Positions 50,118 to 50,290 of a stretch of DNA of 64,000 nucleotides are shown one piece after another. Under the pieces are notes generated by a model that searched no databases, had not been told where the DNA came from, and worked only from the letters and a program-made list of their open reading frames with translations. Made by a program: the position numbers and the translations under genes. This stretch comes from Gammaproteobacteria bacterium (lineage in GTDB: Bacteria > Pseudomonadota > Gammaproteobacteria > JAUIAT01). The first letter of the stretch is position 1. Each line of letters starts with the position of its first letter. The stretch spans positions 9,487 to 73,486 of the forward strand of contig JAUIAT010000006.1 in NCBI GenBank assembly GCA_030425295.1, given 5' to 3'.

Positions 50118-50290
50118 CTGTCATCCCGCGACTTGATCGCGTGATCCATGAAGCTAGATCCCACGGTCAAGCCGCGGGATGACAAATTCTGATTTCGGGA
50201 TGACAGATTCTGGCTTCGGGATGACAAATTCTTAGCCACATTGTCAATAAGCAATTGATTCCCAAAAAACCTCGAAACTCAGGTTATTTT
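50118..50290. repeat. Full composite family A repeat: inverted hairpin pair, then 3 tandem 21-bp units (TTCGGGATGACARATTCTGNC), then a conserved tail (CTTAGCCACATTGTCAATAAGCAATTGATT...CTCGAAACTCAGGTT).
   Basis: Collinear with the copy at 61321-61472. The hairpin GGATCCCACGGTCAAGCCGCGGGATGACA is shared with 38874, 61359 and 63829. Confidence 0.8.

Follow-up and report, generated by a model that had tools for sequence, protein, structure and literature searches.

Dispersed palindromic repeats of a gammaproteobacterial contig compared with CGTC-tagged REPs and the targets of Ssn nucleases

Tagged hairpin repeats and Ssn nucleases

Among bacterial REPs (repetitive extragenic palindromes), one class is defined by a terminal CGTC tag, often TGTC, by stems of 8-9 bp that almost always start with complementary A/T residues, by loops of 4-5 nt and by a short tail fitting CCA, its members being mostly head-to-head dimers (Di Nocera 2013, PMC3733652). 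The superfamily includes the Rickettsia palindromic elements (RPE) RPE-4 (CGTC-4) and RPE-6, as well as the Neisseria repeat dRS3 (CGTC-1) (Di Nocera 2013, PMC3733652). The repeats compared here with this class are hairpins dispersed through a 64-kb stretch of DNA from a Gammaproteobacteria bacterium (contig JAUIAT010000006.1, positions 9,487 to 73,486, referred to as the window), where they form, among others, a composite element at 50117-50290. Judged by their sequence, they are members of the already described class of CGTC/TGTC-tagged REPs, later named Ssn-related motifs (SRMs).

The Ssn proteins (cd10448 GIY-YIG) are site-specific nucleases of single-stranded DNA (ssDNA), whose targets are the hairpin repeat NTS (CGTCATTCCCGCGMAVGCGGGAATCYRG, overlapping dRS3) and its relatives, the SRMs (Chenal 2025, PMC11893778). 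They cleave only one strand, at a site a few nucleotides to the 5' side of the tag, and neither bind nor cut duplex DNA or RNA. By mutagenesis, cutting was found to depend on the three bases that precede the palindrome and binding on the C that follows it, and two half-NTS oligonucleotide strands support cleavage in vitro (PMC11893778). The motif occurs nearby in 71% of ssnA homologues, in a motif-gene-motif layout that resembles an insertion sequence (IS) (PMC11893778), while ~19% of the SRM-rich genomes in the literature have no detectable ssnA. One element has in this way entered two literatures without cross-reference, as CGTC REPs, RPE-4/6 and dRS3 in 2013 and as NTS/SRM and Ssn in 2025; the same element stands in both, and Chenal 2025 (PMC11893778) does not cite Di Nocera 2013 (PMC3733652).

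The hairpin unit, its relatives and its candidate nuclease

The unit that recurs in the window can be written as (C/T)GTC-AT-CCCGCGG-CTTGA-CCGCGGG-AT-CCA. Its 5' tag, (C/T)GTC, is unpaired, its 9-bp stem starts A-T/T-A, its loop is CTTGA (5 nt) and its 3' tail reads C(C/T)A; the tag-strand consensus of the copies is nCTGTC-ATCCCGCGG-CTTGA-CCGCGGGAT-CCAT. The window holds ~10 copies in 64 kb, against 0 by chance, together with 3 of a second family. A first-pass annotation of this DNA had proposed a dispersed composite palindromic repeat family, which is confirmed by the 29-nt core GGATCCCGCGGTCAAGCCGCGGGATGACA, with 7 window matches at <=3 mismatches versus 0.00 expected (shuffles give none). 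The coordinates then given were right within a few bases, save that the copy placed at 39003 really lies at 39011-39039 (-). The tag is TGTC in 8 of the 10 copies (CGTC in the second family, at 2452, 40039 and 40123), the first two stem pairs are invariably A-T and T-A (10/10), and the 3' tail is CCA or CTA. Outward-tagged inverted pairs are found at three loci (35038-35105, 50117-50184 and 61320-61387), and one inward-tagged arrangement lies in sufD.

A Logan contig of run ERR3428545 matches window positions 38941-50347 at 100% identity, the whole element at 50117-50290 included. Since this independent contig spans the element intact, the repeats are not assembly artefacts, a possibility that the earlier reading had allowed for. 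The ends of three other contigs from the same run (L119, L120 and L121) fall at 38941, in the 21-bp array of sufD, at 61366, in a hairpin, and at 2445, beside a second-family hairpin, which is the pattern expected of a multi-copy sequence and indirectly suggests one in this genome.

In their tag, their 9-bp stem with AT first, their 5-nt loop, their CCA tail and their outward-tagged dimers, the window copies agree with the definition of the CGTC-tagged REPs, and the comparison with REP and RPE catalogues proposed in the first-pass annotation leads to that class, RPE-4/6 and dRS3 included. The definition also fits 270 hairpins in 118 related stretches among the matches listed, in which TGTC (137) and CGTC (121) are the tags, 199 hairpins have the tail CCA and 208 the loop CTTGA, and the pairs are outward-tagged in 73 cases, inward in 17 and tandem in 9. 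These hairpins should accordingly carry the label of CGTC-type REPs or Ssn-related motifs and be called neither terminators nor novel RNAs. The superfamily has a second hairpin family (CGTCATCCCGAGCGTAGTCGAGGGATCTGAA) in the window, at 2394-2483, 40039-40069 and 40123-40153. It has an irregular stem with G.A/A.G mismatches; an inward-tagged pair of it sits in the suf operon, between sufB and sufC, and after the copy at 2452 come partial repeats that resemble the tag (GGCATGACAA, ATGACG).

The stem-preserving compensatory changes proposed in the first reading are borne out. Standard pairs make up 96.7% of the stem cells among the 10 window copies, and both sides have changed at 3/9 stem pairs (8 cells), from C-G to T-A twice and from G-C to A-T once; neither the pairing nor the covariation value was reached by any of 500 shuffles, and slid controls gave 21-46% pairing. 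A search of the collection with ATYCC-NNNN-TCAAG-NNNN-GGRATGAC, which leaves four stem pairs free, found at least 118 genome stretches. Perfect complementarity at the 4+4 free positions is seen in 140 of the 150 matches listed, with at least 25 distinct perfectly complementary stem types, and the hosts among those matches comprise Nitrospirota, Treponema, Desulfobacterota, alpha- and gammaproteobacteria, Rickettsia, Wolbachia, Dehalococcoidia, Fibrobacter, Campylobacter, Chlorobium and others. Such complementary stems across phyla indicate that the hairpin is a widespread structured element. It is not peculiar to this genome and forms part of the published CGTC-tagged REP / Ssn-related motif superfamily of many phyla.

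The link to Ssn is drawn from the published SRM motif, HGTCWYN(0-2)YYVSBRHN(0-5)WNVSBRGN(0-2)RNCYNB (PMC11893778), which has 4 matches in the window against 0.05 expected from first-order Markov surrogates; copies outside the strict motif miss it by 1-2 positions. The unpaired positions that mutagenesis has marked as critical are invariant or nearly so in the window alignment. In other genomes, GIY-YIG genes (PF01541) of 94-97 amino acids (aa) lie between or beside these hairpins, as seen in three stretches (L010, L047 and L106), the short hairpin-flanked intervals having led to them; this agrees with the association already published (PMC11893778). In Rhizobium (L010), two perfect hairpin-gene-hairpin units have 343-bp spacers with the GIY-YIG gene inside, and L106, a gammaproteobacterial assembly, has a GIY-YIG gene by the same hairpins. 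A transposase gene between outward-facing hairpins was looked for and not found in the one long interval checked (L106, 2.4 kb), whose open reading frames (ORFs) look by eye like the housekeeping genes obg, rplU, rpmA and ispB.

Some details of these stretches deserve mention in their own right. The two units of L010 (Rhizobium bangladeshense NZ_LYPL01000027.1, 2000-6000) are tandem and near-identical, with ssn ORFs at 2335-2616 and 2988-3269 and thirteen hairpins in 8 kb, and are a local amplification of an IS-like unit. In L047 (Wolbachia wCori CP116769.1, 169-471) an in-frame stop divides the GIY-YIG gene between the hairpins into two ORFs (169-312, 316-471), and the gene is probably a pseudogene. 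The longest ORF containing ssn in L106 (7275-7664, minus strand) starts with MDPVVKPRDDE, which is the translated upstream hairpin, so that automatic gene calls can absorb hairpins as spurious N-terminal extensions.

By analogy with these systems, the window repeats are likely to be tagged REPs/SRMs that are bound as ssDNA hairpins and cut by a cognate Ssn. The tag-bearing strand would fold into a hairpin when single-stranded; a ~95-aa single-domain GIY-YIG nuclease (Ssn, cd10448) would bind the stem and the C after it, and would then cleave on the 5' side of the tag, a few nucleotides away; neither the complementary strand nor duplex DNA or RNA would be a substrate. Selection on both fold and tag would account for the invariance of the flanks and for compensatory changes in the stem. 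The first-pass annotation had argued for selection as RNA or cruciform DNA, and an ssDNA hairpin is the better candidate, since neither RNA nor duplex DNA is bound by the Ssn nucleases that have been characterised (PMC11893778). An active cognate Ssn in this genome, like the way in which copies would spread, is postulated by the same analogy, and from the repeats a small GIY-YIG nuclease of ssDNA is predicted to be encoded outside the window. In form, the outward-tagged pairs resemble IS-like SRM-ssn-SRM units on a miniature scale, and here a lineage-specific palindrome of ~205 bp encloses the pair.

Several observations weigh against this proposal. The strict SRM motif is met by only 4 of the ~10 window copies, and several copies without tag or with stem mismatches suggest decay. 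Mismatches of the G.T and A.C types have no strand asymmetry (21 versus 16 at <=2 mismatches, p=0.51; 16 versus 8 at <=1 mismatch), so the sequences alone do not show one selected strand. An ssn/GIY-YIG ORF is absent from the 64 kb, as judged by a hidden Markov model search of six-frame ORFs of at least 40 aa (E<=10) and by tblastn, and the literature offers no mechanism by which such repeats multiply.

Composite elements, half-site arrays and the copy in sufD

In alignment, the two long copies, near 50117 and near 61320, run collinearly, as had been claimed, from the inverted hairpin pair through the 21-bp units to a tail ending CTCGAAACTCWGGTT, a tail end with 2 matches in the window against 0.03 expected; three 21-bp units stand at 50175-50237. 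The copy near 61320 runs from 61262 to 61472 and reaches further left than had been noted. Its terminal inverted repeat of 14 nt is perfect (61262-61275 / 61453-61466, AGTTTCGAGTTTTA / TAAAACTCGAAACT), and it folds as a whole into one long hairpin (z = -4.7). The copy near 35038 consists of the pair plus a left-type arm (88% over 121 nt versus the 61262 copy), and that near 50117 of the pair plus a right-type arm. The complete composite is thus represented by one copy, the other two having one arm each, and arm sequence without the hairpin pair was not found in the window.

On the tag strand, the 21-bp unit is TGTCATCCCGAA + 9 nt, that is, tag and 5' arm without loop or 3' arm; the units of sufD (TTGTCGCCTGAAGGTCAAGGG, sense strand) are diverged versions with the same position and the same period. 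Half-sites of this kind, which are not themselves hairpins, occur on the tag side of 34 of 266 hairpins, from 26 sources in several phyla, and in the mirror test 3' arm and tail recur beyond the tail at 2 of 261 (Fisher p = 7e-9 versus the tag side), both counts being among the matches listed. Spacings of 19-25 nt are the most frequent, and the control with shuffled keys yields 2. Two origins were rejected: nested insertion predicts equal tail-side remnants, against the 2/261 seen among those matches, and unbiased slippage is ruled out by the one-sidedness, which singles out the flank that Ssn cuts.

Text searches of PMC3733652 and PMC11893778 found no description of natural half-site arrays; the tag-side arrays are the only potentially new element here. 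It is conceivable, and put forward tentatively, that the 21-bp units are one case of a general SRM module with tandem 'tag + 5'-arm' half-sites solely on the Ssn cut side. We infer that half-sites arise from nick-initiated duplication or slippage. One option is that displacement synthesis from an Ssn nick would stall at the hairpin, the displaced flap being re-ligated. Another is that half-sites would be natural split sites, pairing alternately with the single 3' arm and shifting the cut in fixed steps, an idea raised because two half-NTS strands support cleavage in vitro (PMC11893778). Either option, if true, would show Ssn acting on the host chromosome, and the module would explain the growth of a 7-residue repeat inside SufD; the one-sided arrays offer a sequence-level handle on Ssn self-chromosome cutting and repeat multiplication.

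The copy inside sufD (37835-39244, minus strand, with a 4-bp overlap with sufC) is a composite repeat at 38865-39047, made of two hairpins and four 21-bp units (~61 codons), which lies in frame and reads ...EWIPRSSRGMREEGEDQALPPEGQRLSPEGQGLSPEGQGLSPEVQKTLSSRGLTAGSS... The start codon upstream of the repeat is genuine, since the SufD N-terminus aligns with the invariant SufD residues F36, P42, E47, W49 and Y51. Residues 60-130 comprise 71 aa, versus 24-34 (median 33) in 43 homologues. In the AlphaFold model (mean pLDDT 88, pTM 0.88), residues 74-100 fall below pLDDT 50 and the rest is confidently folded. The insert is therefore predicted by the model to be a disordered surface loop, in which the composite copy would be tolerated in frame. 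This SufD is <=44% identical to any other, its named matches being from a Gammaproteobacteria bacterium, Coxiella sp., Ca. Nitrosacidococcus tergens, Pseudomonadota and Proteobacteria.

Table 1. Repeat units, composite parts and genomic context in the 64-kb window
Feature	Position	Strand	Remarks
Composite, context	50117-50290		Between convergent mutS and sulP
Left hairpin unit of outward-tagged pair	50117..50148	+	C-TGTC tag, stem ATCCCGCGA / TCGCGTGAT (1 mismatch), loop CTTGA, tail CCA
Right hairpin unit of pair	50154..50184	-	Minus strand = TGTCATCCCGCGGCTTGACCGTGGGATCTAG; matches published SRM motif
Two extra 21-bp half-sites outside the tag	50185..50237	-	GGGATGACA at 50197 and 50218; 3 tandem units with the hairpin's own copy
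Right arm/tail	50238..50290		CACATTGTCAATAAGCAATTGATT...CTCGAAACTCAGGTT; common to copy near 61320
Composite, context	61262-61472		Downstream of gdh, upstream of sixA
Left arm of complete ~205-bp palindromic composite	61262..61319		Starts with terminal inverted repeat AGTTTCGAGTTTTA
Left degenerate hairpin unit	61320..61352	+	TGTCATTCTGCGACTTGGTCTCGGAATCTAT
Right hairpin unit, perfect copy	61357..61387	-	Matches SRM motif
One degenerate half-site, then right arm	61388..61472		GCGGGACAACC; arm ends TAAAACTCGAAACT-CTGGTT
Composite, context	35038-35160		Downstream of sufT
Left hairpin unit of third outward-tagged pair	35038..35068	+	TGTCATCCCGCGGCTTAACTGCGGCATCCAT
Right hairpin unit of third pair	35075..35105	-	Matches SRM motif
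Arm homologous, inverted, to left arm 61268-61319	35106..35160		88%
Hairpin unit inside sufD	38871..38901	-	Tag strand = sufD sense strand; matches SRM motif
Four degenerate 21-bp tag-side units in sufD	38902..38992	-	TTGACCTTCAGGCGACAACCC; translated as LSPEGQG repeats
Second, degenerate hairpin inside sufD	39009..39040	+	Tag TCTC, facing the 21-bp array (inward-tagged arrangement)
Single hairpin with compensatory C-G to T-A change	63827..63858	-	CCCGTGG / CCACGGG; just upstream of M23 peptidase gene
Degenerate single hairpin without tag	23367..23398	-	Fills 33-bp gap between convergent acetoacetate-CoA ligase and accA
Starts of core GGATCCCGCGGTCAAGCCGCGGGATGACA matches	35040, 39011, 50119	-	Strand of match
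Starts of core GGATCCCGCGGTCAAGCCGCGGGATGACA matches	38873, 50156, 61359, 63829	+	Strand of match
More degenerate copies	23373; 35075-35106; 61320-61352		

The window also contains other features. An unrelated ~100-bp repeat of 75-80% identity lies at 52185-52287 and 63037-63140, directly 3' of two minus-strand genes; it contains TTGCAACACCAATTKTCAACAG, has a weaker copy at 10141-10182 and in part occurs again in inverted orientation (52130-52172 versus 57608-57650, upstream of the gene at 57673). Tandem repeats of 15/30 bp (GACTTATTYTTYTTA-like) are present at 15246-15320, inside a 926-aa ORF (13757-16537). No Pfam-A match was found for a 544-aa ORF (747-2381, plus strand), nor any Pfam-A or NCBIfam match for the 339-aa ORF (33908-34927, minus strand) directly downstream of the repeat near 35038.

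Alternative explanations and known systems

Most copies lie just past gene 3' ends and one inside sufD, as the first-pass annotation had it; every intergenic copy is beyond the 3' end of at least one gene, up to ~130 nt past the stop codon and between convergent or co-directional genes. This position would suit a role at the RNA level, in which the hairpins are stabilisers of mRNA 3' ends, terminators, or a small RNA gene like Wolbachia WsnRNA-46, and many REPs have been argued to be transcribed (Di Nocera 2013, PMC3733652). The terminators or insulators first proposed do not agree with what follows the hairpins: no T-tract was found after any copy (the sequences there are GACAAATTC and CCATGAAG), a terminator scan was empty at the repeats in 49900-50500 and 61100-61700, and one copy sits in the sufD ORF and a related family inside the suf operon, where termination would do harm. 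Intrinsic (Rho-independent) terminators, in which a T-tract directly follows a G+C-rich hairpin, were therefore rejected for want of the tract. Searches of the whole window gave no Rfam match at gathering thresholds and found neither tRNA nor tmRNA. The Rfam model RF02625 (WsnRNA46) matches 50096-50202 weakly, with 24-27 bits, far under its gathering score of 65.3, and a Wolbachia stretch used as positive control (L044, 5202-5368) gives 82.7 bits. The WsnRNA46 consensus (guGuCaucc...ggauCcaG ... CugGau...ggauGaCac) represents, both in sequence and in structure, two outward-tagged hairpins of the CGTC/SRM type, as in the window, with a spacer of ~60-80 nt where the window pair has 10 nt. What this Rfam family models is therefore a dispersed DNA repeat. 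Recognition by a nuclease accounts for the conserved unpaired tag and tail, and RNA is not bound by Ssn (PMC11893778). A role at the RNA level is thus considered unlikely; it is compatible with hairpins as nuclease targets, each explanation leaving room for the other.

Three further explanations were weighed. REPINs, the REP doublets mobilised by RAYT (an IS200/IS605-like Y1 transposase), have the same architecture, a pair of inverted hairpins that a short spacer separates, and are likewise scattered through intergenic DNA. Their defining unpaired GTAG tag is absent here, where the tag is TGTC/CGTC, no RAYT gene flanked by CGTC units is found in the literature (PMC3733652), and the gene that these hairpins flank in other genomes encodes a GIY-YIG nuclease and no Y1 transposase; the domain-scanned ORFs of the window are housekeeping or unknown, though not every window ORF was scanned for Y1. 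A REPIN origin is consequently very improbable. The ~205-bp composite, with its arms and terminal inverted repeat, might alternatively be a conventional MITE (a miniature transposable element with inverted repeats) that a DDE transposase moves, the hairpin pair being cargo or a later insertion. The perfect terminal repeat, the folding into one long hairpin and the arm sequences common to three copies are in keeping with this, and similar REP dimers embedded in longer palindromes have been reported for other species; yet only one copy is complete and two are one-armed, the arms never occur without the pair in the window, no target-site duplication is evident and a transposase is absent from the window, which makes a MITE improbable. 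It has also been considered that the copies are decaying relics of a past expansion, enzyme and function both being gone from this genome. The tag is lost at 23367 and 39009, stem mismatches are found at 35038, 50119 and 61320, the ssn gene was not found in the 64-kb window, and CGTC families have been proposed to be possibly heading for extinction (Di Nocera 2013, PMC3733652). Against such decay stand two perfect copies and the 96.7% stem pairing with compensatory double changes, which argue for purifying selection or recent copying, and the relic explanation is rather unlikely.

Among known systems, REPIN/RAYT and the present class have in common non-autonomous inverted hairpin doublets, a tie to one single-copy nuclease gene and recognition of ssDNA hairpins, but a GTAG tag and an HUH Y1 transposase in the former correspond to a CGTC/TGTC tag and a GIY-YIG nuclease in the latter. 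As in the Rickettsia elements RPE-1, RPE-4 and RPE-6, a palindromic repeat lies in frame in a protein gene, here sufD of an essential pathway, within a variable region for which disorder and surface exposure are predicted; the insert differs in being composite (~61 codons) and in its host lineage. With CGTC families 3/4 (PMC3733652) the repeats share the CGTC/TGTC tag, the 9-bp stem with AT first, the 5-nt loop, the CCA tail, the predominance of outward-tagged dimers, sites beyond gene 3' ends and occasional in-frame intragenic copies. Most described CGTC families are alphaproteobacterial, whereas the host here appears to be a divergent gammaproteobacterium. Compared with the SRM/NTS-Ssn system (PMC11893778), the window pair is embedded in a longer palindrome with 21-bp half-site arrays, which are not described there, the ssn gene was not found in this 64 kb, and the unit has a 9-bp stem and the loop CTTGA where the Neisseria NTS has an 8-bp stem and a 4-nt loop. 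Both, however, are oriented hairpins in which the 5' tag is (C/T)GTC, the stem starts with AT and a C stands on the 3' side; their copies are dispersed and mostly intergenic, 4 window copies fit the published motif, and the same hairpins flank small GIY-YIG genes in other genomes.

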